DNA of 39,289 nucleotides, taken from assembly GCA_030613605.1 (NCBI GenBank), contig JAUWLO010000001.1, forward strand, positions 1 to 39,289, read 5' to 3'. The stretch's first letter is position 1, and every line of letters starts with the position of its first letter. Origin of the DNA: Gammaproteobacteria bacterium. GTDB lineage: Bacteria; Pseudomonadota; Gammaproteobacteria; SZUA-152. The notes beneath the pieces were generated by a model. It was not told the origin of the DNA. It made no database searches and saw nothing but the letters and a program-made list of their open reading frames with translations. Position numbers and translations under genes: made by a program. Shown here one piece after another: positions 14,597-35,083 of this stretch.

Positions 14597-16288
14597 TTAA
14601 AGTGTACCGTTGATCACGCTAATTGTTTCTGAACGTATTGTGGCCTCGTCATACAGTGCTTCAAACTTTGCAACTTCTGGGTTGGTGTTGTCCAGAAACA
14701 GGTCCGTAATAAAGCCATAAGCCAGTGACTGGTACTTTAACTCTGCGGTATAACTGATAGTGTTAATACTCGCCGAGCCGATATTTATTCTGTATGTGAC
14801 AAGGTCGCTCCCGAAATTAAAATTGTTATCAATCATCGCTTCCCCCGAAACCAGGACATCATCAACCACTACATTCTTGTCGAAGCCTGCTGGCGGTATA
14901 CGATTGTCTTTTAAATATGAGGCAGCGCGCAGCAATGTATAGGTAACGTTATTGTCTGTGTCACTCATAATCGCTTCATATATCTGCACCTGATCTTGTT
15001 GTGTTATTTCGTCATAATGAGATTCATAGCGACTCAAATCTGTATCGGCATCTGCAGCAACAATACTTCCATCCGAATTGGTTTTACCAGACTCAAAAAC
15101 AATAGCACCCGTATTGTCACGCACTACAAAATGAATATAGACGCGTCGTGAGGGATAGCCGGTTGGTAGCTTGTGGCCGGAATGGTTGTTGATGCGTAGT
15201 TGTACAGTCAGTTCATCGCCAACCAGATTTTGACTAACTATCTCAATGTCAGCTGCTGAAACCAGCATCGCGCGAGTTCGCGTTATCGCTGTATCGAAAC
15301 CATCAGCAGTTACTCCCAATTCGACTTTATTACGTGAAAGAATATCCAGCATAGTGGTGTTGGCTCCTACCAGGGTGTGACGAGAAAAATCATTTCGGGC
15401 GGCAAGAAAGTTGGGGCGTGTTGAGATCTTAACGCCATCGGTTTTTGGCATATGGCAGTCCTGACAACTCTGGGCTGTTGCGCCAGATGCAAATGAGCTG
15501 TTTTCCCATTCTGTGTAAACCATTTGTTCGGGAAATTCTGACTCGGGCGTGGTGCTCGCAACTGCCCCAGAGCTGTCCACAAAAGGTGTTTTCAGGTTAT
15601 GGCAGGTTGCACACATCTCTGAGCTGGATATGTGTGCTGCATAAGTTGGCCAAATCCCGGTATTGTTGAACATTGGATTGCTTACAGGATCGGCGTATTG
15701 GCCAAAGGCGGTACGTTCTGTATTAGTACCCAGATCTACAATGCTGAACTTTCCGGAAAAGCCATTGAGTGTTCCCAGGTTTCCGTCATCCTCAATCTGA
15801 TGGCAGGCGGTACAACTAACACCGTCCATTGCAAGATTGTAGTAGACGTTTTGTGGATTAAGAAAACCATCACCAAATAATTCAACTGTTGAACCTTCAA
15901 ATTTTGCTTCAACACTTGCCATTGGCGCATGGCAACGGGAACATTTGTCAGCTAGTAAGGCTTTAAGCTGCGGATTACGTTGCATTTCACTGGCAACCTT
16001 TGCACGCCAGAAGGGATCACGCGTTGAATTTGCCATCATCGAAGTTGACCAGTCTGATTCGATGGATACATCATTGGCTGCACCGTCAGTTAAGCCGTTG
16101 TGGCAGGTAGTACAAGTACCAGAGCCAGCGAAATGGGTAGATAAGAAATTCGGATCGTTTGTGAATGTGGAGGTAGATGTAGATGGCGCACTACTACCTC
16201 CGTAACAAGCGGCTAATAATAAAATCAACAAAGTTAGCACAACATATTTTGCGCGCTGATTTATTTCTCTACCCATGATTCTTTCCAT
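14597..16288 (-). CDS. Pentaheme c-type cytochrome lipoprotein with a large non-heme C-terminal domain
   Basis: 563 aa with the lipobox LLLAAC. There are five CXXCH motifs (CTTCH, CSRCH, CTACH, CATCH, CQDCH), all in the first roughly 280 residues. The following roughly 280 aa have no heme motif but contain NNHSGHKLPTGYPSRR. Confidence 0.75.
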   Translation of the reverse strand: MERIMGREINQRAKYVVLTLLILLLAACYGGSSAPSTSTSTFTNDPNFLSTHFAGSGTCTTCHNGLTDGAANDVSIESDWSTSMMANSTRDPFWRAKVASEMQRNPQLKALLADKCSRCHAPMASVEAKFEGSTVELFGDGFLNPQNVYYNLAMDGVSCTACHQIEDDGNLGTLNGFSGKFSIVDLGTNTERTAFGQYADPVSNPMFNNTGIWPTYAAHISSSEMCATCHNLKTPFVDSSGAVASTTPESEFPEQMVYTEWENSSFASGATAQSCQDCHMPKTDGVKISTRPNFLAARNDFSRHTLVGANTTMLDILSRNKVELGVTADGFDTAITRTRAMLVSAADIEIVSQNLVGDELTVQLRINNHSGHKLPTGYPSRRVYIHFVVRDNTGAIVFESGKTNSDGSIVAADADTDLSRYESHYDEITQQDQVQIYEAIMSDTDNNVTYTLLRAASYLKDNRIPPAGFDKNVVVDDVLVSGEAMIDNNFNFGSDLVTYRINIGSASINTISYTAELKYQSLAYGFITDLFLDNTNPEVAKFEALYDEATIRSETISVINGTL

Positions 16289-19811: not shown

Positions 19812-20276
19812 TTATTTCGTCAACAGGACAGGTATGCTGGAGCCATTGGCAACTTCTCGGCTTACACTGCCAAGAAGAAAATCATGGGTTCGTTTTCCTC
19901 GCGAACCAATAATAATCAGTTCGGCTTCTGACTCCTCTGCGCCAGAGAGAATTTCTTCCGCCGGGTGTCCCACTTTCACCATACAATTTATATCGGTGAT
20001 ACCAGCTTTCTCCAGCATTTTATGATAATGAACCATGATTTTGTCGGCGCGTACATCCAAAGCTTCTTTATACTCGGTTCCTTGCAGGGCTTCTCGTAGA
20101 GTGTCCATCTCTGGGCCCATAACCATTCCCTCTCCAATAAGTGATTGGCCGAGTACTTTCTGTACATAAACCAAAGTAACTGCCAGATTGGTCGTAGAAA
20201 ATAAATCAATTAAAGTCTCGACCGCACGTATTGATCCTTTACTGTCATCAACTGCAATGAGTACTCTCTTCATCAC
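19812..20276 (-). CDS. Universal stress protein (UspA family)
   Basis: 154 aa with VLIAVDDS, LIIIGSRGK and LGSVS motifs. An AAGGAG site precedes the ATG. Confidence 0.85.
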   Translation of the reverse strand: MMKRVLIAVDDSKGSIRAVETLIDLFSTTNLAVTLVYVQKVLGQSLIGEGMVMGPEMDTLREALQGTEYKEALDVRADKIMVHYHKMLEKAGITDINCMVKVGHPAEEILSGAEESEAELIIIGSRGKRTHDFLLGSVSREVANGSSIPVLLTK

Positions 20277-20365: not shown

Positions 20366-21376
20366 TTATTTTTTACCTTCCAGTTTTGCGACCTTCTTCT
20401 CTAACTTTTTGATCTTTTTATTCAAGCCGGCAAAATTGAACCACTGCTCTCCTGCCACAGGATGATCGAGCTGTGACCCATAGACACGCCATGATTCATC
20501 CCAGTTGGCGGGATCTTTAAAGCCAAGCAGCCTCATTTCCAGATAGGTCAACGTGGAACGTGTACCTGTCTGGCAATAGGCAAGAGTACGTTTACCTTTA
20601 TCCAAAGATGAAAAGGCTTTGGAAGTAGTTGCAGCATCAAGGTATGCCGTTGCTTTCATTTTTCCCGATTTCTTATCCTTTGCTTTTGACAGGGTGTCGA
20701 TATGGGAAACATTAATGGTGGTATTGGGTACATGTCCGCCTCTGATGGCACGAATATCTTTACCGATATGCTCCTTTTTGGTTCTGGAGTCTATCAATTG
20801 CACGCCACTGCCTTTGGCAATTTTAAGAACCTCTCCAGTAGAGCCGTATCTTGATGATACAACCTTCGCCTTAAAGGTAGTGGCTGCCTTTTTGACGGGT
20901 TTGTTATCAAGGCGATTGCCTGCTTTGCGCCAGGCATCCAGACCACCATTGAGAACATGAACCTTATCGTGTCCGAGATATTCCATTATCCAGAAACCAA
21001 CAGTGGCATCCGTAAAGGTTTTCATACCATCGTAATAAAACACCACATGAGTATCATTACTAATACCCACTTTCCCAAATAATTTTTCATATTTGGAAGT
21101 GTCTCGGTAAACTCGTGCAGTGTTATCTCGCAATGCCTTCTTGCAGCGTTTACCAAGACTTATGGCGCCTGGAATATGCCCTTTCACATAACCTTTAAGG
21201 CCTCTGCAATCAACAACCACCCAGTTAGATTTGTTGATATTTTTCTTAACTGTATCGGCCGTTACCAAAAGACCGGGATTTGCCCATTTTGCCGCACCTA
21301 ATGCCGTCATGCTGATAAACCCCGACATTAGGACTAAAAACAAAACTATATATTTTGATTTTTTATACATATCCAT
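20366..21376 (-). CDS. Periplasmic tandem-rhodanese sulfurtransferase
   Basis: 336 aa with a signal peptide. It has two rhodanese-like halves, and the second carries the active-site loop YCQTGTRS. The C-terminal tail is KKIKKLEKKVAKLEGKK. Confidence 0.8.
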   Translation of the reverse strand: MDMYKKSKYIVLFLVLMSGFISMTALGAAKWANPGLLVTADTVKKNINKSNWVVVDCRGLKGYVKGHIPGAISLGKRCKKALRDNTARVYRDTSKYEKLFGKVGISNDTHVVFYYDGMKTFTDATVGFWIMEYLGHDKVHVLNGGLDAWRKAGNRLDNKPVKKAATTFKAKVVSSRYGSTGEVLKIAKGSGVQLIDSRTKKEHIGKDIRAIRGGHVPNTTINVSHIDTLSKAKDKKSGKMKATAYLDAATTSKAFSSLDKGKRTLAYCQTGTRSTLTYLEMRLLGFKDPANWDESWRVYGSQLDHPVAGEQWFNFAGLNKKIKKLEKKVAKLEGKK

Positions 21377-21672: not shown

Positions 21673-22680
21673 GTGGACACTAAAAACCCTATCCCTCTGA
21701 TTTCCATTATTATCCCTAACTTTAATGGGGCGAGTACTCTGCGCCAGTGTCTCGGGGCGGTAACATCGCTTAAGGATGAGTGTTTCGAGGTAATCGTTGT
21801 GGATGATGGGTCTCACGACAATTCTGTGGAGATCATCAAAGAGTTTCCCTGCCGATTAATTCAACTAGAGCAGCAGAGTGGTGCCTCAAGGGCACGCAAT
21901 GTGGGAGCCGGAAGCAGCCACGGTGATATTCTTTTTTTTACCGATGCAGATTGCCTGGTTCAAGCAAATACCCTGAGTGTAATCCGGCAAACAATGGCCG
22001 TGAATAACCCAAATGTTATTGTCGGTGGTACCTATACAACCCAGCCCGGGGATAATCGGTTTTTTAGCGCCTTTCAATCGGTGTTTATCAATTTCTCTGA
22101 GACCAAACAACTTAAATCACCCGATTACCTTGCCGGCCATGCACTGGCCATCGATGCAAACACCTTTCGCCAAAGTGAGGGGTTTGCTCAGGATTTTCTC
22201 CCCATACTGGAAGACGTCGAATTCAGTCATCGACTGCGACGGATGGGCAGGCAATTAATCATTGAACCACGTTTTTTGGTTCAGCACATTTTCAATTATT
22301 CCCTCATGGATTCATTCCGTAATGCACTGTGCAAGACCAAGTACTGGGTCGCCTACTCTCTGAATCACCGGGATTTATTGTCAGATTCAGGGACTGCCTC
22401 TCACGAACTTAAAATGAATGTTGTGTGTTTTTATATCTCTATCCTGTCCCTTTACATGCTCCTTGGGCTCGATGTGGGCGGTGCATTATTTGGGCTTGCC
22501 ATGCTTACGATGATTAACCTTACAGTGAACAGGAAGCTTTTCCGGGCCTTTTATGATGCAAATGGATCATTGTTTACCCTCCGCGCCTCTTTATACTATT
22601 TATTAGCTTACCCACTTCCCGTCGGGGCTGGCGCTGTTGCTGGAATCACATACTTTATTAGAACTAAAACGAAGGATTAA
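21673..22680 (+). CDS. Family 2 glycosyltransferase with C-terminal transmembrane segments
   Basis: 335 aa with ISIIIPNFNG, VIVVDDGSHD and FFTDADC (DXD-type) motifs. Two to three hydrophobic helices occupy the last roughly 100 aa, as in polyprenyl-phosphate glycosyltransferases (ArnC/GtrB type). GTG start. Confidence 0.75.
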   Translation: MDTKNPIPLISIIIPNFNGASTLRQCLGAVTSLKDECFEVIVVDDGSHDNSVEIIKEFPCRLIQLEQQSGASRARNVGAGSSHGDILFFTDADCLVQANTLSVIRQTMAVNNPNVIVGGTYTTQPGDNRFFSAFQSVFINFSETKQLKSPDYLAGHALAIDANTFRQSEGFAQDFLPILEDVEFSHRLRRMGRQLIIEPRFLVQHIFNYSLMDSFRNALCKTKYWVAYSLNHRDLLSDSGTASHELKMNVVCFYISILSLYMLLGLDVGGALFGLAMLTMINLTVNRKLFRAFYDANGSLFTLRASLYYLLAYPLPVGAGAVAGITYFIRTKTKD

Positions 22681-22712: not shown

Positions 22713-23816
22713 ATGCAAATGTATTCTCCATTCCGCCACGCCCCCGCTCTATTCTGGAAACACAAGCCCATACACTTGACCTTTTTTGTGACACGCCGCT
22801 GTAATGCCAGGTGCCCCTATTGTTTTTACCTCCAGAGCCAATCGCCTGAGTGTGATAACCCTTTAGAGAGTCCAGAAAATGAGTTGTCGCTAGAAGAAAT
22901 CCGGAAATTAGCACCGTCCTTTGGGCGTTTACTCTGGCTTGCCTTTTCTGGTGGAGAAATCTTTCTTCGCAAAGACCTGGTCCAGATTAGTCAGATTTTT
23001 TATGAACACAACAAACCGAGCATTATGCTCTATCCAACCAATGGCCTGATGCCAACTCTGATCAGAAACCAGATAGAACAAATCCTTGCTCATACTCCAA
23101 AGAGTGTCGTGGTTGTTAAATTATCTCTGGACGGTCTAAATGAACGTCACGATGAACTGCGCAATACGCCTCACAGCTTTGAGAAAACCCTAAAGACCTA
23201 TGAATTACTCAGCCCTCTACTTGAGCAATATCCTAATTTTGAACTTGGCGTAAATACCGTTTTTTGCTCCGATAACCAGAACCAGATGGATGAGATTATC
23301 GATTTTGTCGAAACATTAGAGCATGTGAATACTCATACTATTTCCATGATCCGAGGATCTCTCAAAGATACACATTTTCAGGAAAACATTGATTACGATA
23401 AGTATGCGCAGGCAGTGGATCGTCTAGCCATTAATATGAAAGGCTCACCGTCCAATCGCTATCGTTTTAAGGGTGCGGGATTGAAGGCAGCGCAAGATGT
23501 TATACAGCGACGTATTATTCATCGTACCCTGGTGGAACAAAAACGTCAGATACCTTGTTACGCAGGTCGTACTAATTTGGTAATGACAGAGGTTGGTGAG
23601 ATTTATCCCTGCGAATTATTAACAGATAGTTTTGGTAACGTGAGGGATCATGATTACGATATTGAACAAGTAGTTAACACCAGCCAGGCAAAAAATAGTA
23701 TTGCCGATATCGAGTCGGAGTCCTGCTTTTGCACACATGAGTGCAATCTAATGACAAATATTCTCCTCAACCCAAGACTTTTACCTTCCCTGGCTCGGGA
23801 ATATAGCGCGCTGTAG
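22713..23816 (+). CDS. Radical SAM enzyme with Cys-rich C-terminal (SPASM/twitch-like) region
   Basis: 367 aa. The motif CNARCPYC (CX3CX2C) is preceded by FFVTRR. A SGGEIFL glycine-rich SAM motif is present. C-terminal cysteines are CYAGR..(15)..C and CFCTHEC. Confidence 0.8.
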   Translation: MQMYSPFRHAPALFWKHKPIHLTFFVTRRCNARCPYCFYLQSQSPECDNPLESPENELSLEEIRKLAPSFGRLLWLAFSGGEIFLRKDLVQISQIFYEHNKPSIMLYPTNGLMPTLIRNQIEQILAHTPKSVVVVKLSLDGLNERHDELRNTPHSFEKTLKTYELLSPLLEQYPNFELGVNTVFCSDNQNQMDEIIDFVETLEHVNTHTISMIRGSLKDTHFQENIDYDKYAQAVDRLAINMKGSPSNRYRFKGAGLKAAQDVIQRRIIHRTLVEQKRQIPCYAGRTNLVMTEVGEIYPCELLTDSFGNVRDHDYDIEQVVNTSQAKNSIADIESESCFCTHECNLMTNILLNPRLLPSLAREYSAL

Positions 23817-23844: not shown

Positions 23845-25323
23845 TCAGGAAGAAGAATTCAGGCTTGATGGTACCGGAGTACCAGGTTTCTGAAACAGGC
23901 CTTTTTTCGCCCATACCCAAAACAGTGTTCTAATCCCACTCAGTGCCAGCCGACAATCATCCAGACTTCGTAACTGTAACAATCGCCGCATAAGAAATGA
24001 GGGGCGTGAATAAAAACGCTTAAAGGCAAGTTGCCGCAGCGTGTGAATCTGTTCCCTGCTCATGGTGTGGGGAGTAAAAGCGGCTCCCTGATAGGTATAG
24101 TTACTCAAATCTTTAGACACCGTTCCATATTTTTCCAGATTGTCGTAAAGATGGGTTCCCGGGAATGCCGTCAGTGCATGGAAATTGGCTAAATCCGGAT
24201 TGAGTTCAATGGCAAACTCAATGGTTTTCAAGCCATCCTCAAATGTCTCGCCAGGAATTCCAAATAGAAAGGGTGTGCTGACTCTAAGCCCTACTTCCTT
24301 GGCTGCCTTAACAGCCTTACGCGTTTGCTCCAGGGTAATACCTTTGCGTAAGGTGTTTAGGTTTTTCTGTACACCACTCTCTGCACCGAAAAGAATGGCC
24401 CAACACCCTGCTTCTTTCATGGCACGCAATAAGGGTTTATCTACCTGGTTTACGCAGGACGAGGCAAACCAGGTGAAATCCAGTCCTTCTGATTTAATTG
24501 CCTTTGCCAGAGTCATCGCCCGGTCGTAGTCAGCAGCAAAGGTATCATCAATAAACTTTATTTCTCGGTAACCTTGATCCAGACACGCCCGTATTTCACT
24601 CAATACATTCTCGACACTGCGGTATCGAATTCCACGCTTACCACTTTTTCTGTTTTTATCCGTCTGGGAGCAAAAGATACAGCGCCGATTACAGCCTCGT
24701 GCTGTGATCATTACGGCGACCGGTTTACGTCGATAGGTTGCAGGTGGTGGGGTGTAATCATCGATATCACCTAGAAGGTCTCTTGCTGGCAGCGGTAGTG
24801 CGTCCAGGTCTTCGATTAAAGGCCGAGCCTGATTTTCTATAATTTCGTTATTTTCTCTAAAAATAATTCCTTGTACGTCGCGTAGTGACAAACCGGCCTC
24901 AAGGTGATTCACCATTTCAGTAACCGTCACTTCTCCCTCACCTGTTACTACGGCATCAATACTACTGGTATTCTCCTCTAAACATTGTCGTTGTTTTGCT
25001 ATTGGGAAGGGGCCACCAACAGCGATAAACACTGAGGGATATAAACGTTTAATGTCATTGGCAGTGCTTACGGCTTTATTCCAGCCGAATGTGGTTGAAT
25101 AGATTCCGACAAAAGCAGGGTCAAATTGAGCTAGACTCTGAATGAGTTCGGATTGTGTCATAAAGGCCCCATTGTAGAATTTCACCTCGTGGCCCGCATT
25201 TTGCAAACATGCAGCAACATATAGCGTACCCAGTGGTTGCCAGTAATTGATCTGAAAACCGGCAGTCTTGGTGGGAAATAATTCTTCCGGTAACCAGGAA
25301 GGTATGACAAGGGCGCATTTCAT
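23845..25323 (-). CDS. B12-binding-domain radical SAM enzyme (class B)
   Basis: 492 aa. The N-terminal Rossmann-like B12-binding-type segment (ALVIPSW...GHEVKFYN...FVGIYSTTF...IAVGGPFP) is followed by ARGCNRRCIFC (CX3CX2C). A TAAGGAG RBS precedes the ATG. Confidence 0.85.
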   Translation of the reverse strand: MKCALVIPSWLPEELFPTKTAGFQINYWQPLGTLYVAACLQNAGHEVKFYNGAFMTQSELIQSLAQFDPAFVGIYSTTFGWNKAVSTANDIKRLYPSVFIAVGGPFPIAKQRQCLEENTSSIDAVVTGEGEVTVTEMVNHLEAGLSLRDVQGIIFRENNEIIENQARPLIEDLDALPLPARDLLGDIDDYTPPPATYRRKPVAVMITARGCNRRCIFCSQTDKNRKSGKRGIRYRSVENVLSEIRACLDQGYREIKFIDDTFAADYDRAMTLAKAIKSEGLDFTWFASSCVNQVDKPLLRAMKEAGCWAILFGAESGVQKNLNTLRKGITLEQTRKAVKAAKEVGLRVSTPFLFGIPGETFEDGLKTIEFAIELNPDLANFHALTAFPGTHLYDNLEKYGTVSKDLSNYTYQGAAFTPHTMSREQIHTLRQLAFKRFYSRPSFLMRRLLQLRSLDDCRLALSGIRTLFWVWAKKGLFQKPGTPVPSSLNSSS

Positions 25324-25334
25324 CCTGTTTCTCC

Positions 25335-26756
25335 TTAAGAGTCTCCTGAAAACATTGTCGTTGAAACCATTCCATTCATTTGCATTTGTTTTCGCTGAAT
25401 TTCTTCTGCCACATCGAAACCCGCTTTCATAGCGTGGTCCATATTGTAATACTTAAACATCCCTCCTCGACCTGCCGTGTACAGATTTTCAAACTTTTCC
25501 AGATATTGATTAATTGTATGGCAGTGGTCACTGTAACCGATCTCAAATAAAGGATAGGCATTTGGAATTCGCATCACCACCTGGTCAATAATATCCTTCT
25601 GATCGATGATGCCGAGGTCATGCAGAATTTTGCTGGTACTGGTAATCAACTCAAAATCTTCACTATTCCACGTTTTGTCACCACGAAAACAGAAATACTC
25701 AATCACCAGAAGTGATTTTCCGGGTGGCGCCATACTGTCACTCCAATTGGTTGGCTCGTGAATACGACCAAATGGAATGGATTTTTCCGGTACATAAATC
25801 CAGGTGTGGCCAGTAACGCGAGGTCGATTGACCATAAGGGTGACCGTCACAAGATCACGGCTGCGTAATTGTGAAGCGGCCTTCAATACATGCTCTGGTG
25901 GTTTTGGTCTTAAGGCGTTGACAAGAACAGGGAGTGGAATGGTGGAAACAAAATGGCTTGCGGATAATTGACCTGGTCGATCATTACATAGTATTTCCAC
26001 ACTTTGAATTCGCGAGTCTGAGTGATTAACAAAACGCACACGTGATTGTGTATATATGGTGTGTTTTTTACATATATCCGCAGCCAGATTGTCGGTAATT
26101 TGGCCTATACCTTTTCGTGGATAAAGGAAACGGTCTGCCAGTGTGGTGAATTTCTTTTTACTGGTAGGCAGTATGGCTTTTGCAATGGCCTTCCCTAAAG
26201 ATAATCCTTGAATTCGCTGTTCTACCCACCGTTGATCAATGTGCTGGCATTCTATGCCCCAAACCTTTTCACTATAGTCACGAAAGTAGATATTGAACAT
26301 AGTGCGGCCAAAATTGGCCACCACCCAGTCTTCAAGTGATGCTGGTATTTCGGTAGTGAATTGTGCGCGAATGCGCTCATAAATATAATCCGCCAATATC
26401 TTTGCCGACATTTTTGGCCCAAAAGCGGATAATGCCTTGAAAGGTTTTAGAGGGTAATCAAAATAACGATTTCGGAGTAGAATCTTACTTGAGCGGGGAA
26501 CGACAAGACAATCCTCGTTGAGGATAGTTCGTACAAAAGTATCCAGTTCCTGGTCATTGGTAACAAACCGATGGCCGCCCAAATCAAAACGAAAACCATT
26601 ATGTTCAATGGTGCGTGCCAGACCACCTATATTTTTACCTGCTTCTATAACAGTCACAGGGAAATTAGCTTTGGTTAGCGCGTGGGCGGTACTCAGACCA
26701 GCTAATCCTCCGCCCATAACCAATGCATGGTTAATCGTATTTACTCTGTCATCCAA
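25335..26756 (-). CDS. FAD/NAD(P)-binding oxidoreductase (amine oxidase / protoporphyrinogen oxidase / UDP-galactopyranose mutase superfamily)
   Basis: 473 aa with the dinucleotide fold VMGGGLAGLSTAHAL...VIEAG..IGG, plus FDLGGHRF and FLYPRKGIGQI motifs. The TTG start is preceded by GAGGTGA and lies 9 nt after the stop of the upstream small ORF. Confidence 0.75.
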   Translation of the reverse strand: MDDRVNTINHALVMGGGLAGLSTAHALTKANFPVTVIEAGKNIGGLARTIEHNGFRFDLGGHRFVTNDQELDTFVRTILNEDCLVVPRSSKILLRNRYFDYPLKPFKALSAFGPKMSAKILADYIYERIRAQFTTEIPASLEDWVVANFGRTMFNIYFRDYSEKVWGIECQHIDQRWVEQRIQGLSLGKAIAKAILPTSKKKFTTLADRFLYPRKGIGQITDNLAADICKKHTIYTQSRVRFVNHSDSRIQSVEILCNDRPGQLSASHFVSTIPLPVLVNALRPKPPEHVLKAASQLRSRDLVTVTLMVNRPRVTGHTWIYVPEKSIPFGRIHEPTNWSDSMAPPGKSLLVIEYFCFRGDKTWNSEDFELITSTSKILHDLGIIDQKDIIDQVVMRIPNAYPLFEIGYSDHCHTINQYLEKFENLYTAGRGGMFKYYNMDHAMKAGFDVAEEIQRKQMQMNGMVSTTMFSGDS

Positions 26757-26765
26757 AACTCACCT

Positions 26766-26972
26766 CTACTCGGTTAAGTCTTTATAGTAATCCTGTAGCT
26801 CCTCGCTCACACCCTCTGGTGCCGAGCCCTCGGATCCAGCCCCATAACCACCTGCATCAGGAGCTTCAAAGTAACCCGGTTCTACACCCGTACCATAGGA
26901 TATTGTCCAGCCAATAAAAAACGATAACATGCAGCTAACAATAATGATTGCTGACCATTGATAGATTTTCAA
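26766..26972 (-). CDS. Small single-pass membrane protein with acidic C-terminal tail (paralogue 1)
   Basis: 68 aa. The TTG start is preceded by a strong GGGAGGGAG SD. It has one N-terminal TM helix and a Gly/Glu-rich tail ending VSEELQDYYKDLTE. It is a paralogue of 27036-27227. Confidence 0.55.
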   Translation of the reverse strand: MKIYQWSAIIIVSCMLSFFIGWTISYGTGVEPGYFEAPDAGGYGAGSEGSAPEGVSEELQDYYKDLTE

Positions 26973-27035
26973 TGTTCTCCCTCCCTATTCTTGTTAATAA
27001 AGGGACAGTGTTGCTCAACAATGCAGTCCACGGCC

Positions 27036-27227
27036 TCATTCTGCCTCTTCGGACAATTGTTCGTAATATTTTTCCATATCTTCACTGACATCCGATTTCA
27101 GGCCTATAGCCTCGCTCTTATCTCCACCAATCATCCCAACCTCTATCATGGGCGGTAAGCTGTAACCCATTAGAAATCCCATAAACACTGTCACCACCAG
27201 AATGACAACCCAGAGTCCGTTTTTCAT
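27036..27227 (-). CDS. Small single-pass membrane protein with acidic C-terminal tail (paralogue 2)
   Basis: 63 aa from ATG 27227 (the track uses TTG 27242). It has the same architecture as paralogue 1, and the tail ends VSEDMEKYYEQLSEEAE. Confidence 0.5.
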   Translation of the reverse strand: MKNGLWVVILVVTVFMGFLMGYSLPPMIEVGMIGGDKSEAIGLKSDVSEDMEKYYEQLSEEAE

Positions 27228-27331
27228 TGTATAGGCCCCCAAATATTACGATCACAATCAGCTAGTTTTTCATAAATAAGCGTTATTACATTTATGATTT
27301 GATCGTTATTTTTAAAGATCATTTTTCTAAC

Positions 27332-27577
27332 CTACGCCTTTTCTATATCCCATAAGAACTGGCCGCCTTCCTTGCTTTGTGAAACGATTTCATCGCCTGT
27401 AATATCGCACATGGCAGCAATAGATTCACCAGAGGAAGGGTTATCAAATATCACCTGTAAATGATCACCAGATTCAATTTTTGATAATGCCTTTTTGGTA
27501 TAGATTTGTGGGTGTGGACATACATAACCTTTTACATCCAGACGATAGTGTCCTTCAGATTGTTTTTCAAAATTCAT
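27332..27577 (-). CDS. TusA-family sulfur carrier protein
   Basis: 81 aa. LDVKGYVCPHPQIYTKKAL carries the CP-X-P active-site motif. The DHLQVIFDNPSS segment follows, as in TusA/YeeD. Confidence 0.8.
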   Translation of the reverse strand: MNFEKQSEGHYRLDVKGYVCPHPQIYTKKALSKIESGDHLQVIFDNPSSGESIAAMCDITGDEIVSQSKEGGQFLWDIEKA

Positions 27578-29075: not shown

Positions 29076-30953
29076 TCAAAGGATTGTATTAATTGCCTGA
29101 CTTCTGACAGGTAAATAAATATCAACGATTGTTTTGTAACGATATATTTCTTCCTGTGTTACGAATTGACGGGCATGTTTATATGCAGAGAGTCGTTCTC
29201 TTATATTGCCCGGAATCTCCTGTTTTTTACTATTCGATATAACAGCAATAATTCTTTCTGTATTTTCTTTATTGTATTGATAATATGTTGGTAATTTATA
29301 TTCCCAGGTAAATCTCAGAGGAGACGACTGCATATCATTTAACTTTGTTTGAGGGTCTCTTCCTCTTTCATCTCTATAGATGACCTGTTTCTGACTATAT
29401 AAATCAAATAAGGGGATACTCATAACTGGATTCACAGATGATCGGGTTTGTGGAAGCGTAATAACCTCTACTGTTGATAGTTCCATGGAATCAATATATT
29501 TACTGGCGGCCTGGATATTGCTTGCGCTGGTGCTTCCAAGAAAAGAGGAAAATCCTGATACTGAGAAGATGCTTGCTGATAGCAGGATGCATAAGCTCAA
29601 GTAACGCCGAATCCTTGCTTCCTTAATGTTAGCTAACGCGTAACCTGCCATTAGGGATAACATTGGGAATGCGATCAAAACATACCTTATTCTTCTAATA
29701 TCAATTATTAATATCAATAGGATCATCCAGCCAATAATTAAATATTTTAAATCCCTCTTCTTGTAGGCAAGATATAGTGAAACAACGGCGGCCAGAGAGA
29801 CAAAAGGATGGGATTGAAAAAGGAATGTCGATAGGTGGCTTTCTGACCATCCGCTTAGTGCAGGCCACTGATATCCGATCAACAATTCTATTTGGTTAAC
29901 AAATACTTCATGCTTCCAAAGTAACAATAGGCCCAGAAAAGCAGAAAGAGAGGCCAGGACAATAATATTTTGTTTTAGCATCATTTTCCTGGCATCAGGA
30001 TTGACTGTGATTTTGAAAAGAACCAGTGAAATCACGGGTAAAATACTCAGCATCAACCAGGTTGAGTATTTTGTCAGCATTGCCAGGACAATACACACCG
30101 CAGCGAGTACTGGTAAAATCGAATTCTGTCGTGTTAATGCCCGGGTATAGACGAATATAGCAAGGGAAAGAAAAAACATGGCTGGCACATCTACTAACAT
30201 CAATGGTACCTGTGTGTGGAGATAAGGGATTGCCAATAACATCAGCGCTCCATACAGACCTACACGCTCACTCCACAGGAGCTTACCGATAAAAAAGGTC
30301 ATGATGACCGTGCCGGAAAAAAAGAGCGTATTAATGACCTGTATGCCTGCTCGACTTTCCCCAGAAACTTGAAATATTAATCCATAAATAAACGGGACAA
30401 GAGGTAAGTCAGTCCAGGCCATGATTCCACGCCCCCACTCGCTAATAAAATAGCCAATGCCGTACATCTCCACATATTTTGCCTGGGTGAAGTATCGAGC
30501 GGCATCTACAATCACCTCAGGGCTACTCCAGTGCAAAATGCCAATGGAATACGATATTAAAAACAGGACGGGTACGAAATAGTGACGTGAAAGTTTAATG
30601 GTAGATATATACCATGCGATCATTAAACCTATAATCAGGGTGAATGAGATGGCCAGTAGGTCTGACTCAGAGAATATCCATTGCCAACTGGTTAGACGAT
30701 TGTCATCAATAGCACGTAACGATAATAAAGCAAAAAAAACACACAGGGATGATAAATAGATCAGTATTGCTTCTGGACAGCGTGCGATCGATGAAATTCT
30801 CAGGCAAGCCTGTTGAAAATAGGAATGAAACCCTACCGTTGTATTACCAATAAGAACCTGTTCCCCATTTTCACAAGGATCGATCCGATTGTTAACACCT
30901 TTACCAGGAGATAACTTTATCGCATTGCTCGATCTTGTCGACAAGCTCATCAT
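29076..30953 (-). CDS. GT-C fold membrane glycosyltransferase (ArnT/PMT, GT39/GT83-like)
   Basis: 625 aa with at least 10 hydrophobic helices in the first roughly 480 aa. A first-loop motif, VDAARYF, resembles the D-x-x-RY motif of ArnT/PMT enzymes. The C-terminal soluble domain is about 140 aa. AT-rich by eye. Confidence 0.55.
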   Translation of the reverse strand: MMSLSTRSSNAIKLSPGKGVNNRIDPCENGEQVLIGNTTVGFHSYFQQACLRISSIARCPEAILIYLSSLCVFFALLSLRAIDDNRLTSWQWIFSESDLLAISFTLIIGLMIAWYISTIKLSRHYFVPVLFLISYSIGILHWSSPEVIVDAARYFTQAKYVEMYGIGYFISEWGRGIMAWTDLPLVPFIYGLIFQVSGESRAGIQVINTLFFSGTVIMTFFIGKLLWSERVGLYGALMLLAIPYLHTQVPLMLVDVPAMFFLSLAIFVYTRALTRQNSILPVLAAVCIVLAMLTKYSTWLMLSILPVISLVLFKITVNPDARKMMLKQNIIVLASLSAFLGLLLLWKHEVFVNQIELLIGYQWPALSGWSESHLSTFLFQSHPFVSLAAVVSLYLAYKKRDLKYLIIGWMILLILIIDIRRIRYVLIAFPMLSLMAGYALANIKEARIRRYLSLCILLSASIFSVSGFSSFLGSTSASNIQAASKYIDSMELSTVEVITLPQTRSSVNPVMSIPLFDLYSQKQVIYRDERGRDPQTKLNDMQSSPLRFTWEYKLPTYYQYNKENTERIIAVISNSKKQEIPGNIRERLSAYKHARQFVTQEEIYRYKTIVDIYLPVRSQAINTIL

Positions 30954-31071
30954 AAGATGTTTCCTTGTTGGTGAGATCTACAGTCTCGACTTTATTATCA
31001 TTTTTTTGTTCCTCGATGAGCTTCGTGGCTTTTTCATCGGGACCATCATTGAAGATATACAGTATTTTCAT
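30901..31071 (-). CDS. Unannotated 56-aa ORF with DsrH/TusB-like C-terminus
   Basis: Hand translation: MKILYIFNDGPDEKATKLIEEQKNDNKVETVDLTNKETSYDELVDKIEQCDKVISW*. An AAGGGA SD lies 8 nt upstream of ATG 31071. The ORF is below the 60-aa track cutoff and overlaps the GT-C ORF start by 53 nt. Its C-terminus resembles the ...DY.DFV.L......MAW end of TusB/DsrH (from memory). Confidence 0.45.
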   Translation of the reverse strand: MKILYIFNDGPDEKATKLIEEQKNDNKVETVDLTNKETSYDELVDKIEQCDKVISW

Positions 31072-31092
31072 GGGTAGATTCCCTTGCTTCTT

Positions 31093-31395
31093 TTACAGGG
31101 ATATGACTTTATCCGCTTCATTATTCATCATCGCGTTGTTAAATTGACTGCCCAGGACGATTTCCTTTGATATCCCTTCCGTATTCACACCTTGATCGCT
31201 AGCACTGTGCTGGCAAAGGCTCATCACAACGTTATCTGCTGTACATAGCTGAGTAAATTCGGGATAAGCCAATAATCGAGTACCGGAGTCCATGGCGAAG
31301 ATAGATACGTCATGTCCCTTTGCGCTAGCTGCCTGAGTGATACCAACAACATGGTCTAGATGGCGGTCTGTTGTTATTATTATCCCTAACTTCAC
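31093..31395 (-). CDS. DsrE/TusD-family protein (short form)
   Basis: 100 aa. The GTG start is preceded by GAGGGGGA. KLGIIITT...GHDVSIFAMDSG...VVMSLCQHSA fits the DsrE fold pattern, including the conserved-position cysteine. Confidence 0.6.
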   Translation of the reverse strand: MKLGIIITTDRHLDHVVGITQAASAKGHDVSIFAMDSGTRLLAYPEFTQLCTADNVVMSLCQHSASDQGVNTEGISKEIVLGSQFNNAMMNNEADKVISL

Positions 31396-31465
31396 GCTGT
31401 ATCCCCCTCAAGCCAATTTATTAGTTTTGCTAGTAATAGGAATACACGCATTACTGCATATCAGG

Positions 31466-31485
31466 AATGATGCATATGCATCATT
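31466..31485. promoter_or_regulatory. Perfect 20-bp palindrome AATGATGCATATGCATCATT (candidate operator)
   Basis: Read directly. It lies 71-90 nt upstream of the dsrE-like GTG start (31395), inside the 247-bp gap that precedes the long minus-strand operon. Confidence 0.4.
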
Positions 31486-31642
31486 TTGGGGTCGCATCAG
31501 AAAAGGACAGTAATATTAACTCTCATACATGATGAGACACTACGCGAGACTATCAGAACGGGTTTTTTTGGAATGGCGTCAAAAAACGATATAGGTGACT
31601 GAATCACCCACAGGAAAATACTACGCAACTAAATAAGATCAA

Positions 31643-31915
31643 CTAATAGGGCAAAATATGGTCGTAAGACAATAACTCCCTGGCCATTGTGGCTGTTGGT
31701 ATATAGGCGGACTCAGTACAACCCTCAATATTTGAATAGGTCTTAATATCCATTTCATCAAGGGTCTCAATATTCAATTCATTGTCCTTTGTCTTAACCA
31801 GATCTCTGTCGAGTAAAAAAACATCGACACTATCATCCATCAAGGTTAAGCCGATGGACATGCGTATCGCTTCATCTTGTCTATCCTTAATGATAACCGC
31901 TATTTTTTTACTCAT
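31643..31915 (-). CDS. Small DsrE/DsrF/DsrH-fold-like protein
   Basis: 90 aa. KIAVIIKDRQDEAIRMSIGLTLMDDSVDVFLLDRDL resembles the beta1-alpha1-beta2 start of the DsrE/F/H superfamily. No conserved Cys sits at the DsrE position. This is a weak call. Confidence 0.35.
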   Translation of the reverse strand: MSKKIAVIIKDRQDEAIRMSIGLTLMDDSVDVFLLDRDLVKTKDNELNIETLDEMDIKTYSNIEGCTESAYIPTATMARELLSYDHILPY

Positions 31916-31951: not shown

Positions 31952-32620
31952 CTAGTGCACAAGGTTATGACGATAGGCGTAAGCTACTGCCTCTGTCTGG
32001 CTATGGACACCCAGTCGCTTCTGGATGTGTTGCATGTGATTACGGACAGTCGTCAGGCTGATCAATAGTCGTTTTCCTATAGAGGCTAGCGATATTCCTT
32101 CTGCCAGCAATTGTAGTACCTCATTTTCCCGGCCAGTAAGGCGAGAGACTACTTCATCACCTTGCCGGGTATTAGCTGGATATGTGAATGATGAGGCTGA
32201 TGGATTTCCTGCGCTCATGGCGTAATCAATAGAAGAAAGAACATCGGTGGACATGCTTCTATTAAGCAGGTGCATCACCACCCACCCCTTTTTACACATT
32301 GATGGCACCAGGACAATATTGACCGATAGAACGATCTGGTCACCCTTAGTGTCATTGGTCTTGATCGAGAAGGATTTAGGTGCGTCTGTTGCTTTCCCGG
32401 AGGCCATATCGGCAACGCAACAACCACGTTTACAAAACTGGGCATCGGTTACCGGATTGCGACCGCATATGACATCACAACATGGACGGCCTAGCACCCA
32501 ATTAGATGAGCGACCAAAAAGCTCTTCACAACCTGCATCCCAATAAATAATTCTCTGCCTGGCATCAACAGCATAGGCTCCATCTACTGCGCCATATAAA
32601 ATATCTCCAAGAATAGGCAC
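31952..32620 (-). CDS. LuxR-family transcriptional regulator with N-terminal Cys-rich PAS-like sensor
   Basis: 222 aa. The C-terminal HTH is LTGRENEVLQLLAEGISLASIGKRLLISLTTVRNHMQHIQKRLGV. The N-terminus is PAS-like (AVDARQRIIYWDAGCEELFG) and carries seven Cys in about 40 residues. The GTG start is preceded by AAGGGG. Confidence 0.8.
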   Translation of the reverse strand: MPILGDILYGAVDGAYAVDARQRIIYWDAGCEELFGRSSNWVLGRPCCDVICGRNPVTDAQFCKRGCCVADMASGKATDAPKSFSIKTNDTKGDQIVLSVNIVLVPSMCKKGWVVMHLLNRSMSTDVLSSIDYAMSAGNPSASSFTYPANTRQGDEVVSRLTGRENEVLQLLAEGISLASIGKRLLISLTTVRNHMQHIQKRLGVHSQTEAVAYAYRHNLVH

Positions 32621-33125: not shown

Positions 33126-33569
33126 ATGGAAAAAAGGCATGGGAGCATGAGCAGCAGATCACCTCGCTTTGGAGTATTGCACCAGAGCAATATCACCATG
33201 TTCTTTTTCAGCCTGGCGCTAAGTTTCATGTTGCTTGCGGGGGGGCTATTTGGCTCGGAGGCGCGCGCCGAATACGGTGATATCGTCCTCAATAATTATT
33301 CCGACAAGAATGGGATTCGCCCAGTAATTTTTCCTCACTGGTTTCACCGCATGCGTTACGCATGCAAATCTTGCCATAGCGACATTGGATTTCCCTTTAA
33401 GGCTGGTGGCAGTAAGGTCAACATGCTCAATATTATCAGTGGTGAATACTGCGGCGCCTGCCACAATGGCCAAATTGCCTGGTCGGTGGAAAACTGTGAC
33501 CTGTGTCATTCTGCCCTGCCGAACACGCCTACGCAGGTGCACAACAGTGTGTTAAGAGCACCGAAATAA
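33126..33569 (+). CDS. c7-type triheme cytochrome c domain protein
   Basis: 147 aa with a signal-like hydrophobic N-terminus and three CXXCH motifs (CKSCH, CGACH, CDLCH). They sit in the pattern V.FPH..H...C..CH..(19)..G..CG.CH.G..A....C..CH. The start is uncertain (33126, 33147 or 33198). Confidence 0.75.
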   Translation: MEKRHGSMSSRSPRFGVLHQSNITMFFFSLALSFMLLAGGLFGSEARAEYGDIVLNNYSDKNGIRPVIFPHWFHRMRYACKSCHSDIGFPFKAGGSKVNMLNIISGEYCGACHNGQIAWSVENCDLCHSALPNTPTQVHNSVLRAPK

Positions 33570-33592
33570 TTCAATTATGCCGATCTATTAAT

Positions 33593-34180
33593 ATGAATAA
33601 ACGCCAGATTACAATTACTTCACTTACCTTGTTCGCAGTCGCCCTGACCGCACTGATGGGTGTAGGTGTAGTCAATGCGGCGGGTAATCCTAATCCTTTT
33701 AACCGACTCTTTGTGCCACCCAAAGAGCGTGACACAGCCTTAAAGAATGACAAAATTCACGACCCCTCCGTACCTGGACTGAAGCTGTTACAGCAGCCCA
33801 AAGAAGCCTTTGCACCACTGCCTGGCAGTATAGGTGGTAACTATATTAACTGGGTGCAAGCTCTTAACAAGGGCCTCATCAAGCCTCATTTCGATCACCT
33901 TGATGCCAGCAAAGAGGCCCTGTCCATGGATCTGGTGATTGTCATGGAGGTTAAGGGCAGCATGCCCAATGTAGCCTTCCCTCATAAAGAACACACGGTC
34001 TGGTTAGAATGTACCAATTGTCATGATTCCATCTTTAAGCCATTAAAAGGCGCTAACCCCATGAGCATGGCGGAGATTATGTTGGGACAAAAGTGTGGCG
34101 TGTGTCATGGTTCTGTGGCATTTCCAGTCACAGAATGCCGTCGTTGTCATACGGAATCCAAGAAAACTGCGAAAAAGTAA
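33593..34180 (+). CDS. c7-type triheme cytochrome c domain protein (paralogue)
   Basis: 195 aa from ATG 33593 (signal peptide MNKRQITITSLTLFAVALTALMGVGVVNA). CTNCH, CGVCH and CRRCH are spaced as in the upstream gene. The track ORF start at 33503 overlaps the previous gene and was not used. Confidence 0.75.
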   Translation: MNKRQITITSLTLFAVALTALMGVGVVNAAGNPNPFNRLFVPPKERDTALKNDKIHDPSVPGLKLLQQPKEAFAPLPGSIGGNYINWVQALNKGLIKPHFDHLDASKEALSMDLVIVMEVKGSMPNVAFPHKEHTVWLECTNCHDSIFKPLKGANPMSMAEIMLGQKCGVCHGSVAFPVTECRRCHTESKKTAKK

Positions 34181-34186
34181 CTCCCT

Positions 34187-35083
34187 TTGCGACCTCAACG
34201 AATTGGCTTTTACTTCCTGCTATTTGGTTTATTGCTCTTTGCCCCACTGAGTATGGCTGATGAGCCTCGTCGCATAATCACGGCCGATGCTAGCAAATTA
34301 GGGGTGGGTCAAAATATTGGTTTTGTGGAAAAACTCATCCATGAATCTGCCGCCGCTAAACAAATCTTGAAAAGTGACAATCCAGAGGCTCGCGCATTTC
34401 AGGAAAAAGCCATCATGCATTTGGATGAAGCAAGGGCAGCTGAGAAACAAGGCAATGCCGAGGCCGTTGCCAAGGCCCTGAACAAGGCTAAGCTAGCCAT
34501 TTTTATGGGCATGCGACTTGTGGGCGGCAAGGTCGTAAAAGATAAAAAGCAGGAGAACTACAATAAAAAGCGGCATAGTCTGGAATCCTTATTGGCTGCT
34601 CATAAGCGCATACGTAAAGAAAATGAGTCAGGACAGGATTCCAGGGATGCAGAAGTCGAAACTCACACTCAGAAAAGGATGCAAGAGGCACAAGCGTATT
34701 ATGACAAGGGAGAACTGATCAAGGCCGGGGATGTGCTGAATAACGCCTATCTCAGTCTTAAACTTTCCCTGGTTAAATTACGTGATGGAAAAACGTTGGT
34801 ACGCAGCCTTCACTTTGAAACCAGGGAAGATGAATACCGATATGAATTAAGGCGTAACGACACCCACAATATGCTCATCAATACCGTGCTGAAAAAGAAG
34901 CGCGAAGATCCACGTCTTGGCAAACTCATGGATATCCCGCTCAAGGAAGCAGACAAGCTTCGTACCGAGGCAGAACAACAGGCAGGCAGCGAGAATTATG
35001 AGGCCGCCATAAAAACCCTGGAAGAGTCCACAAAACACATTATCCGCGCCATTCGCATGGCAGGTATCTTTATTCCTGGCTGA
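34187..35083 (+). CDS. Secreted all-helical hypothetical protein
   Basis: 298 aa. The TTG start lies 6 nt after the cytochrome stop. The signal peptide ends LSMA-DEP. The protein is rich in K/E/A helices, and I recognise no motif. Confidence 0.5.
   Translation: MRPQRIGFYFLLFGLLLFAPLSMADEPRRIITADASKLGVGQNIGFVEKLIHESAAAKQILKSDNPEARAFQEKAIMHLDEARAAEKQGNAEAVAKALNKAKLAIFMGMRLVGGKVVKDKKQENYNKKRHSLESLLAAHKRIRKENESGQDSRDAEVETHTQKRMQEAQAYYDKGELIKAGDVLNNAYLSLKLSLVKLRDGKTLVRSLHFETREDEYRYELRRNDTHNMLINTVLKKKREDPRLGKLMDIPLKEADKLRTEAEQQAGSENYEAAIKTLEESTKHIIRAIRMAGIFIPG

Follow-up and report, generated by a model that had tools for sequence, protein, structure and literature searches.

A stretch of 39,289 nucleotides (nt) of contig JAUWLO010000001.1 (positions 1-39,289, forward strand) of a Gammaproteobacteria bacterium (assembly GCA_030613605.1, GTDB lineage SZUA-152), referred to here as the window, carries what is, judged by gene content and order, an extended sulfur-trafficking cluster of the YTD type, in which one gene, the sixth, is undescribed. 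The sixth gene follows tusA and is present in the window as two tandem copies, mpA and mpB, encoding mini-proteins of 63 and 68 residues with a transmembrane (TM) helix and an acidic tail. It is tentatively proposed that the mini-proteins are a third, position-fixed component of the import module formed by a long YeeE-like channel and TusA. We further suggest, with somewhat less than even confidence, that MpA and MpB are single-pass anchor subunits associated with YeeE and TusA, and that a co-encoded enzyme block acts on their exposed tail, which would serve it as acceptor or substrate and most likely be glycosylated. The cluster would represent a new variant of the YTD system containing an undescribed protein family.

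By sequence comparison, mpA and mpB are real genes, paralogous to each other and under purifying selection. The mpA gene lies within an open reading frame (ORF) at 27036-27242 on the minus strand, where an ATG at 27227 gives the 63-residue protein MKNGLWVV...VSEDMEKYYEQLSEEAE, and mpB encodes (M)KIYQWS...VSEELQDYYKDLTE. The two proteins align over their full length with 28% identity (BLASTP, E 2e-7), and their C-termini are near-identical to each other. AlphaFold2 predicts the same architecture for both, with helices at residues 2-29 and 49-62 in MpA and at 3-28 and 57-67 in MpB, joined by coil. The N-terminal helix spans 26-28 residues at a predicted local distance difference test (pLDDT) score of 84-90. 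A preliminary description of the window had proposed just such a pair of tandem paralogous mini-proteins and had considered the first of them, MpB, unlikely to be spurious. Both points are borne out: homologues exist (31 clusters for mpB and at least 100 for mpA), intact copies of both genes occur in 15 GTDB species representatives, and differences among orthologues are in excess at third codon positions (2428 against 1027 and 682 at the other positions for mpA; 2528 against 1154 and 958 for mpB), which together argue that mpA and mpB are more than chance ORFs. The strong Shine-Dalgarno sequence GGGAGGGAG described ahead of the TTG start of mpB was likewise found, as were tusA upstream and the flavoprotein ORF beginning 9 nt after the mpB stop. 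No terminator-like sites were seen on the coding strand between tusA, mpA, mpB and the flavoprotein gene, and scans of the tusA-mpA and mpA-mpB spacers for promoters, terminators and RNA folds gave nothing beyond chance. The 108-nt tusA-mpA spacer (27228-27335, minus strand) has a fold of -19.6 kcal/mol, somewhat better than its shuffled versions (z -2.2), although 6 of the 200 shuffles equalled it. The plasmid collections searched contained neither mpA nor the long YeeE.

Published descriptions of the YTD gene cluster reportedly include Umezawa 2020. The cluster consists of five genes, yedE-tusA-dsrE-like-CHP-CHP, the last two encoding conserved hypothetical proteins (PMC13293266, ISME J 2026; PMC9751629). 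A recent study showed that the three small proteins form a sulfur transferase, termed DsrEFH type II (PMC13293266). Subtype 1 of DsrEFH type II is found mainly in Nitrospirota and Pseudomonadota, and the YTD or YeeE-TusA-DsrEFH type II module occurs in Nitrospirota, Desulfobacterota and Pseudomonadota (PMC13293266; PMC9751629). In the window, the Sulf_transp and TusA genes identified by Pfam are adjacent on the same strand, an adjacency kept in all loci, and a DsrEFH type II-like trio is present, s100 passing the Pfam DsrE model and s90 and s56 being assigned by synteny. It is this trio, s56-s100-s90 (30901-31915, minus strand), absent from the preliminary description introduced above, that marks the region as an extended YTD-type cluster. 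The mini-proteins were also considered as candidates for the two conserved hypothetical proteins of the published cluster; this was rejected, as those correspond to the DsrF/H-like s90 and s56. Family members without a tail, described below, sit in exactly the published YTD arrangement. The present variant differs from it in having a sixth, position-fixed gene after tusA, an enzyme block inserted in most loci, and a YeeE of about 480 residues. The YTD description in PMC13293266 mentions no radical S-adenosylmethionine (rSAM) enzyme, glycosyltransferase or transmembrane mini-protein, and a literature search found no paper combining YedE, TusA, radical SAM and glycosyltransferase.

MpA and MpB belong to a family of approximately 390 distinct homologues (394 aligned in register) from Pseudomonadota, Nitrospirota and Desulfobacterota. 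When 1.84 billion representatives were searched with a profile built from the two paralogues, 97 matches at E<1e-3 were obtained, referred to here as the remote family; a metagenome scan used 31-residue N-terminal fragments as query. Pfam, NCBIfam and the PDB returned no family and no solved relative, whether the query was MpA, MpB, a remote member or the family profile, and the homologues are annotated in their sources as "hypothetical protein" throughout, or the gene is not called. The family signature across the 394 sequences is M1, K2, L5, W6, I9, V12, G/A/S17, F18, L19, G21, Y22 and S23. Conservation reaches 90% for M1, 83% for K2, 87% for L5, 94% for W6, 80% each for I9 and V12, 87% for G17 (100% for G/A/S), 93% for F18, 88% for S23 and 95% for Y22, although frequencies at G21 and position 22 hold by construction, these being the alignment anchor. 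The family-defining part is the N-terminal TM helix, MK-x2-LW...G-F-L-x-G-Y-S, and not the C-terminal YY; its G17...G21 pattern is recognisable as a small-xxx-Gly packing motif. Among homologues of MpA, the helix FMGFLMGYSLPPMxEVGMIGG is nearly invariant. The preliminary description had instead placed the emphasis on a conserved C-terminal motif, VSE-x3-YY-x2-L-x-E. While the near-identical ends of MpA and MpB support it, the most conserved parts are the TM helix and the middle of the MpB tail; distant orthologues keep only [DE]-Y-Y-x-x-L at the C-terminus and not the "VSE" part, and 88% of remote members have no YY motif.

The tails vary far more in the remote family, whose members share the same N-terminal helix (MKTSLWIVIVVV..GFLxGYSVSSYTG). 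Remote tails are Ala/Pro-rich, with 1 to more than 10 repeats of (E/D)-x-G-G-Y-G (from none to more than 10 in the family as a whole). Many end in ...GGY, AGY or GGYGR, and 62% have Y or GYx(x) at the end. Tail-less members comprise only 40-43 residues and have no GY. Three intermediates (P0233, P0261 and P0281) combine GGYG repeats with a C-terminal ELQDYYKELYK in the same protein and thereby tie the subfamilies together. In MpB, a 17-residue segment in the middle of the tail, TGVEPGYFEAPDAGGYG, is invariant among homologues yet predicted to be disordered (pLDDT ~50), a behaviour typical of linear motifs that a partner recognises. A low-GC lineage (L075 1485-2379; also L076, L078 and L084) encodes two members of ~120-127 residues with a Lys-rich middle domain and the C-termini GGCGDSAGY and IDDCGESAGY, reminiscent of that of the mycofactocin precursor MftA, IDGMCGVY; beyond the pair lie a GT-C gene, on the opposite strand, and Hdr-like genes. 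Two further matches are of a different kind. P0160, a 2152-residue Gram-positive surface protein matching the profile, was set aside as a probable repeat or low-complexity match. The MpA-type P0100 (WP_455211978.1) has the cyanobacterium Kaarinaea lacus (Nostocales) as its RefSeq source, but its 29.5-kb contig is probably a contaminant, since the other sources are all Pseudomonadota-type metagenome-assembled genomes (MAGs).

The N-terminal segment could also be read as a cleavable Sec signal with possible sites after GYS-x-SS, in which case the Gly/Tyr tails would be released to the periplasm as soluble or envelope-forming proteins. Consistent with such a signal are a Lys in the n-region, a hydrophobic core, a Gly near position -6 and the small residues that "SVSS" or "SISSS" places at -1/-3, and the rhodanese of the same cluster has a signal-like N-terminus. 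However, signal peptides are not normally conserved residue by residue across phyla, as W6, F18 and Y22 are here, and the hydrophobic stretch has the length of a TM segment and is confidently predicted as one long helix. In addition, MpA has Pro-Pro directly after the putative site, and tail-less members would release merely a ~17-residue peptide. Secretion of the tails is thus regarded as very unlikely.

Gene order links the mini-proteins to the sulfur channel. Loci from GTDB representatives, exact-protein look-ups and the metagenome scan (88, of which 78 distinct) were mapped by tblastn and their contexts examined within ±10 kb; the detector missed some mpB copies, which leads to under-reported B counts per locus and leaves the neighbour statistics unaffected. 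TusA is encoded directly upstream of the mini-protein in all 75 distinct loci with upstream DNA, and YeeE precedes TusA in all 68 with enough of it. This yeeE-tusA-mini-protein order spans three phyla, i.e., Pseudomonadota, Nitrospirota (Thermodesulfovibrionales) and Desulfobacterota MAGs. The proteobacterial branch has two mini-protein copies; so, independently of it, does the L075-type lineage, and a single copy is present in the Nitrospirota/Desulfobacterota-type loci examined. The preliminary description had named a small subunit of YeeE or of the GT-C protein as an alternative to its favoured interpretation, and with the constant gene order and the small-xxx-Gly motif the YeeE version has become its best-supported statement. 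It had also suggested asking whether homologues always neighbour YeeE or a B12-binding rSAM enzyme: YeeE is there wherever the upstream DNA suffices, while the B12-rSAM gene is missing from the L019 and L063 loci and from the two longest contigs with tail-less members.

A comparable pairing is known from thiosulfate uptake by YeeE (TsuA) and YeeD (TsuB), where a Sulf_transp channel with three Cys motifs likewise has an adjacent TusA-like partner (PDB 6leo, 8j4c; PMC11073785). While TsuA-TsuB is a two-component system, the window adds a third, single-pass gene without a counterpart known there. The channel itself also departs from the solved examples, with 480 residues against ~340 when aligned to Spirochaeta thermophila YeeE (6leo), largely consistent with an inter-block region longer by ~100 residues (query 151-364 against chain 113-230). 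It scores well below the NCBIfam cut-offs (108 against 400 bits for NF052577, 60 against 645 for NF041049 and 140 against 350 for NF033796), and would accordingly belong to the superfamily only and not be a TsuA equivalog. Identity of the long YeeE ranges from 57 to 88% across all loci and from 78 to 88% among proteobacterial loci, where it is the most conserved cluster protein. Small partners of large membrane proteins are well known: AcrZ of AcrB, KdpF of KdpABC and CydX of CydAB have fewer than 70 residues and one TM helix and are encoded in the operon of the large membrane protein that they bind. The mini-proteins share with them the small size, single helix, operon placement and conservation within the helix, but have no sequence relationship to them and differ in their long motif-bearing tails and in the accompanying modifying enzymes; binding to YeeE is here suggested by gene order and the helix motif.

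The second line of evidence concerns the tail, which occurs together with an enzyme block and, from its distribution across loci, is inherited jointly with it. The block comprises a flavoprotein resembling UDP-galactopyranose mutase (UGM), an HpnJ/AprD4-like B12-rSAM enzyme, an rSAM-SPASM enzyme, a membrane-bound glycosyltransferase of family 2 (GT2) and often a GT-C fold glycosyltransferase. At least part of it is present in 31/31 loci encoding tailed members with at least 2.5 kb of downstream DNA, as opposed to 0/2 informative loci with tail-less members. The next identifiable gene after a tailed member in 50 distinct loci encodes the flavoprotein (38), B12-rSAM (8), GT-C (3) or GT2 (1), hence one of the first two in 46/50. 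Downstream of tail-less members, the DsrE-like trio follows directly in 8/8 distinct loci, and the two longest such contigs (L027 and L072) contain no glycosyltransferase, rSAM or flavoprotein gene. The order in L020, L022 and L062, YeeE-TusA-mini-protein-B12-rSAM-GT2-rSAM-trio, places the block exactly between mini-protein and trio, and in L023 the mini-protein gene lies 10 nt upstream of the B12-rSAM gene. Since tails are found only where the block occurs, the enzymes encoded alongside may use the tail as a substrate or acceptor.

The block is not always complete. Both rSAM genes are missing from locus L063 (1-8200), and from L019 (1-5000) the flavoprotein gene is missing too; these two loci represent one gammaproteobacterial lineage that keeps YeeE-TusA, GT2, GT-C, rhodanese and intact mpA and mpB. 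B12-rSAM is the sole block enzyme near the mini-protein in L047, and GT-C the sole one seen within the 9 kb available downstream in L075-type loci. A correlation of the flavoprotein with tail type or C-terminal residue was rejected, as it may be present or absent with either ending. One remote protein (P0213, 182 residues) begins like a mini-protein and continues, through an Arg-rich stretch resembling a frameshifted GGYG region, into a PRK07208-type flavoprotein at its initial GxGxxG. Although probably an assembly frameshift, it independently confirms that the mini-protein and flavoprotein genes are adjacent in a remote lineage.

The preliminary description had favoured precursors of peptides made on the ribosome and modified after translation (RiPPs), in its classical form a peptide matured by rSAM enzymes with YY as the modified core, cleaved from its leader and released as a product or diffusible cofactor. 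Short paralogous ORFs beside two rSAM enzymes and conserved aromatic motifs are what this would predict. Yet no RiPP recognition element (RRE) or PqqD-type domain was found in any cluster protein by Pfam or NCBIfam, nor a leader peptidase or dedicated exporter among the 15 cluster genes or syntenic loci, and the radical-SAM domain of the rSAM-SPASM enzyme begins already at residue ~26, too close to the N-terminus for an RRE to precede it. The supposed leader is a 25-residue TM helix whose packing motif is conserved across phyla, most remote members lack YY, and the gene is tied to yeeE-tusA and not to the rSAM genes, which tail-less clusters do without. A classical, released RiPP is therefore highly improbable and, with the cleaved signal peptide, the least likely of the readings. 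What stands of the earlier interpretation is a short gene adjoining possible maturase genes and the weaker notion of the tail as a substrate, such that the RiPP idea survives only in the form of a tethered acceptor or substrate.

Regarding the chemistry of the block, similarity points to carbohydrates for four of the five enzymes, the rSAM-SPASM enzyme being ambiguous. The closest solved relatives of the flavoprotein are UDP-galactopyranose mutases (PDB 4u8l, 3ute and 4dsg; E ~1e-19 to 2e-20 over ~340-440 residues), and it passes NCBIfam PRK07208.1-4, a model of unknown function. The B12-rSAM enzyme matches HpnJ in NCBIfam (E 3e-62, 211 bits against a 578-bit cut-off) and, in the PDB, the sugar diol-dehydratase AprD4 (E 4e-27). 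Best NCBIfam matches of the GT2 are TIGR04283 (glyco_like_mftF) and MftF, both below cut-off, with weak similarity to ArnC/PpgS-type models (E 1e-5 to 1e-6). No solved relative of the PMT_2-type GT-C was found by sequence in the PDB. The rSAM-SPASM enzyme is weakly similar to AhbD/NirJ-type enzymes, among others considered below. A lipid-linked sugar tailored by a GT2 and a B12-rSAM enzyme has a precedent in the hopanoid enzymes HpnI (GT2, TIGR03472) and HpnJ (B12-rSAM, TIGR03471), and here too the GT2 is always co-encoded. However, the scores stay far below cut-off (211 against 578 bits for HpnJ and 19 against 310 for HpnI), and the window has no hopanoid genes.

The predicted topology fits such a system. 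Lys or Arg precedes the helix in 92-100% of members, whereas the first 15 residues after it contain 0.2-0.4 K/R and 1.5-2.0 D/E in A- and B-type tails, whose net charge is -5 to -7. By the positive-inside rule, this charge distribution would place the A-/B-type tail outside and the N-terminus in the cytoplasm. The rhodanese, whose gene position is kept in most loci, has a signal-like N-terminus, hydrophobic at residues 10-28 (MDMYKKSKYIVLFLVLMSGFISMTALGAAKW), and is probably periplasmic as well.

Taken together, the following mechanism could be envisaged. The N-terminal helix (MK-x2-LW...G17-F-L-x-G21-Y-S) would anchor the protein in the inner membrane and, as gene order and motif suggest, pack against the YeeE-like channel and/or the sister mini-protein. 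With the N-terminus in the cytoplasm, the acidic tail of ~40 residues, consisting of a disordered Gly/Tyr part and the [DE]YYxxL helix, would extend into the periplasm and be the working part, co-evolved with the enzyme block and most likely its acceptor or substrate. The membrane-bound GT2 may make a lipid-linked sugar that the UGM-like flavoprotein, B12-rSAM and rSAM-SPASM enzymes tailor, after which GT-C would transfer it onto the tail in the periplasm, where the Tyr between glycines in GGYG or a juxtamembrane Ser/Thr could receive it. Finally, it could be speculated that the decorated tail, located beside the channel mouth and the periplasmic rhodanese, helps to capture or hand over sulfur species for import towards TusA and the DsrEFH-like trio. 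Glycosylation is favoured because the nearest relatives of the enzymes are of the sugar type and the tail is predicted to be outside, because GT2 and GT-C are retained where the tailoring enzymes have been lost (L019 and L063), and because GT-C is the only block enzyme seen in L075-type loci. Periplasmic pairs of a GT2 and a GT-C are known from ArnC/ArnT and from Ppm1/Pmt, the latter O-mannosylating Ala/Pro-rich secreted proteins in Actinobacteria. As in these pairs, a membrane GT2 and a PMT_2-type GT-C are co-encoded here, and the Ala/Pro-rich, predicted extracytoplasmic remote tails resemble Ppm1/Pmt substrates; the known polyprenyl-phosphate pairs differ in lacking tailoring by two rSAM enzymes, and the conserved tail residue here is Tyr instead of Ser/Thr.

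Several observations speak against a glycosylated periplasmic tail. PMT-type GT-C enzymes are known for Ser/Thr, yet the only widely shared tail feature is Gly-Tyr, and no tail Ser/Thr is family-wide. The MpA tail is without any GY motif; should the Tyr of GGYG be the site, MpA could not act as an acceptor in the way that MpB does. In remote members, K/R averages 1.33 over the 15 residues that follow the helix, which leaves sidedness unsettled for the family. No GT-C gene was seen within 10 kb of the L022 or L047 mini-protein. The tail-less sample stems from a few related lineages, with only two contigs long enough to exclude the block, and all homologues come from uncultured organisms. Finally, the nearest solved relatives of the rSAM-SPASM enzyme are the peptide maturases SkfB and CteB (weak, E 5e-6), which together with the MftF-like GT2 would fit direct peptide chemistry equally well.

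Such chemistry forms the basis of the main rival to glycosylation on the question of the tail as substrate, i.e., a membrane-tethered RiPP-like peptide. Here, the tail would be cytoplasmic, at least transiently, with its Gly-flanked Tyr modified by the rSAM-SPASM and B12-rSAM enzymes, perhaps with phenol glycosylation by the MftF-like GT2 and with sulfur maybe supplied by TusA/DsrEFH. The product would be a Tyr-derived prosthetic group fixed beside the channel, following the logic of mycofactocin and PQQ without release. The N-terminal part would then be a conserved "leader" ahead of a variable, repeat-bearing C-terminal region. Tails confined to loci with the block, a mini-protein gene 9-10 nt upstream of the first enzyme gene, the many remote tails with Y or GYx(x) at the end, the K/R that follow the helix closely in remote tails, and the best matches of the rSAM-SPASM enzyme and the GT2 all agree with it, and the ends of L075-type members resemble the MftA C-terminus. 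Mycofactocin itself likewise involves a short peptide (MftA) with a Gly-x-Tyr end, an rSAM-SPASM enzyme (MftC), a flavoprotein (MftD) and a GT2 (MftF), which glycosylates the Tyr-derived core (PMC7491314). However, all mycofactocin models remain far below cut-off in the window (TIGR03962 for MftC, 45 against 265 bits; TIGR03965 for MftF, 81 against 280), equivalents of MftA, MftB (RRE), MftD (flavin mononucleotide dehydrogenase) and MftE (peptidase) are absent, and neither MpA nor MpB has an NCBIfam match. The window flavoprotein is UGM-like and not MftD-like, the peptide is membrane-anchored, and the Tyr of MpB is internal. The lack of RRE/PqqD, peptidase and exporter, a B12-rSAM enzyme closest to sugar enzymes, A-/B-type tails that are periplasmic by charge, L019 and L063 with intact tails and no rSAM gene in the locus, and the absence of GY from MpA also count against a tethered RiPP-like peptide, making it an unlikely reading. 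It is similarly doubtful, if conceivable, that a Gly-Tyr peptide made on the ribosome and tethered to the membrane becomes, where it sits at the mouth of the YeeE channel, a prosthetic group derived from Tyr; the B12-rSAM, rSAM-SPASM, GT2 and flavoprotein would carry out this conversion, possibly with sulfur from TusA/DsrEFH, and the group could be glycosylated, cross-linked or sulfur-bearing. A related possibility is that GT-C would be the first enzyme of its kind to glycosylate tyrosine.

Alternatively, the mini-proteins may be accessory subunits that are not modified at all, with the helix binding the channel and the tail either binding or organising sulfur species or docking rhodanese, TusA or DsrEFH. 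The block would then act on another substrate, such as an envelope lipid or glycan, and share only its regulation with the importer. Tail-less members indicate that, in minimal yeeE-tusA-mini-protein-dsrEFH clusters, the helix functions as a unit by itself, L019 and L063 keep their tails after losing the tailoring enzymes, and HpnI/HpnJ-like pairs act on lipids, as the NCBIfam names imply. The Gly/Tyr-rich composition of the tails also recalls sulfur-globule envelope proteins, a resemblance taken as a lead only, for which a literature search returned nothing usable. Still, an unmodified subunit leaves unexplained the co-occurrence of tail and block, the insertion of the block exactly between mini-protein and DsrEFH trio, and the invariance of the disordered 17-residue segment of MpB, and is considered rather unlikely. 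Glycosylation of an anchored tail therefore remains the preferred reading, held with the reservation expressed at the outset.

Only lately was a biochemical role assigned to the YTD module, in the oxidation and disproportionation of sulfur, and the module serves as a genomic marker in sediment and subsurface surveys. A large branch of it contains an overlooked sixth gene, encoding a mini-protein without a family model, and the tail of this protein is co-inherited with a five-enzyme block not previously linked to sulfur trafficking. If the tail is modified, the system would be of a new type, based on a dedicated acceptor or a tethered peptide, and would give direct access to the question of how YeeE channels are supplied with insoluble or polymeric sulfur; modification predicts a cluster-dependent mass shift on a membrane protein of 63-68 residues. 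A tethered RiPP cofactor, if true, would be dedicated to dissimilatory sulfur metabolism in uncultured sediment bacteria. Even as a new accessory subunit, the mini-protein changes how YeeE-type importers are to be reconstituted and annotated.

Table 1. Features of the extended YTD-type cluster in the window, with the mini-protein genes first and the remaining genes from the cluster head to the cluster end.
Feature	Position	Strand	Basis and remarks
mpA, 63-residue single-pass mini-protein	27036..27227	-	TM helix, acidic tail without GY motif, C-terminal E-K-Y-Y-E-Q-L helix
mpB, 68-residue paralogue, TTG start	26766..26972	-	TM helix, invariant TGVEPGYFEAPDAGGYG, C-terminal Q-D-Y-Y-K-D-L helix
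Shine-Dalgarno GGGAGGGAG	26977..26985	-	4 nt upstream of mpB TTG; read from sequence
PAS + LuxR/GerE regulator, cluster head	31952..32620	-	Pfam GerE E 9e-16; kept in L001, L003, L006-L009, L011, L015, L026
s90, second small protein of DsrEFH type II-like trio	31643..31915	-	Syntenic conservation
s100, DsrE-like sulfur transferase	31093..31395	-	Pfam DsrE 24.5 bits vs 22.7 cut-off; Cys motif SLCQHSA
s56, third trio member, DsrH-like by position	30901..31071	-	Syntenic conservation
GT-C fold glycosyltransferase (PMT_2), ~10 or more TM segments	29076..30953	-	Pfam PMT_2 E 7e-10; hydropathy
Long YeeE/YedE-family sulfur channel, 480 residues	27612..29054	-	Pfam Sulf_transp E 3e-41; three Cys motifs kept
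TusA-family sulfur carrier	27332..27577	-	Pfam TusA E 2e-17; directly upstream of mini-protein
Flavoprotein, NCBIfam PRK07208.1-4 family	25335..26756	-	NF005548 441.6 bits vs cut-off 389
B12-binding radical SAM enzyme	23845..25323	-	Nearest HpnJ (NCBIfam), AprD4 (PDB)
rSAM-SPASM enzyme, convergent	22713..23816	+	No N-terminal RRE
GT2 glycosyltransferase, convergent	21673..22680	+	C-terminal hydrophobic segments
Tandem rhodanese	20366..21376	-	Pfam Rhodanese E 1e-26; conserved at cluster end

The remaining observations concern single genes and the surroundings of the cluster (Table 1). The listed GT-C ORF, with its start at 30953, overlaps s56 by 53 nt (30901-30953), and alignments of GT-C orthologues begin only at residue ~58-80; the real start is probably an internal Met well downstream of 30953. 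Genes for multihaem c-type cytochromes (c7/c3-like and MtrC-like) recur beside the clusters, in the window at 33126-35083 (plus strand) and 14597-16288 (minus strand), where two are divergent from the LuxR gene. Others are located at L022 10439-11374, between the mini-protein and B12-rSAM genes, and at L024 150-1403. A universal stress protein (Usp) gene also recurs in or beside the cluster at varying positions (window 19812-20276, minus strand; L007 13434-13895; L009 699-1163; L021 10280-10744), in L021 between the mini-protein and flavoprotein genes.

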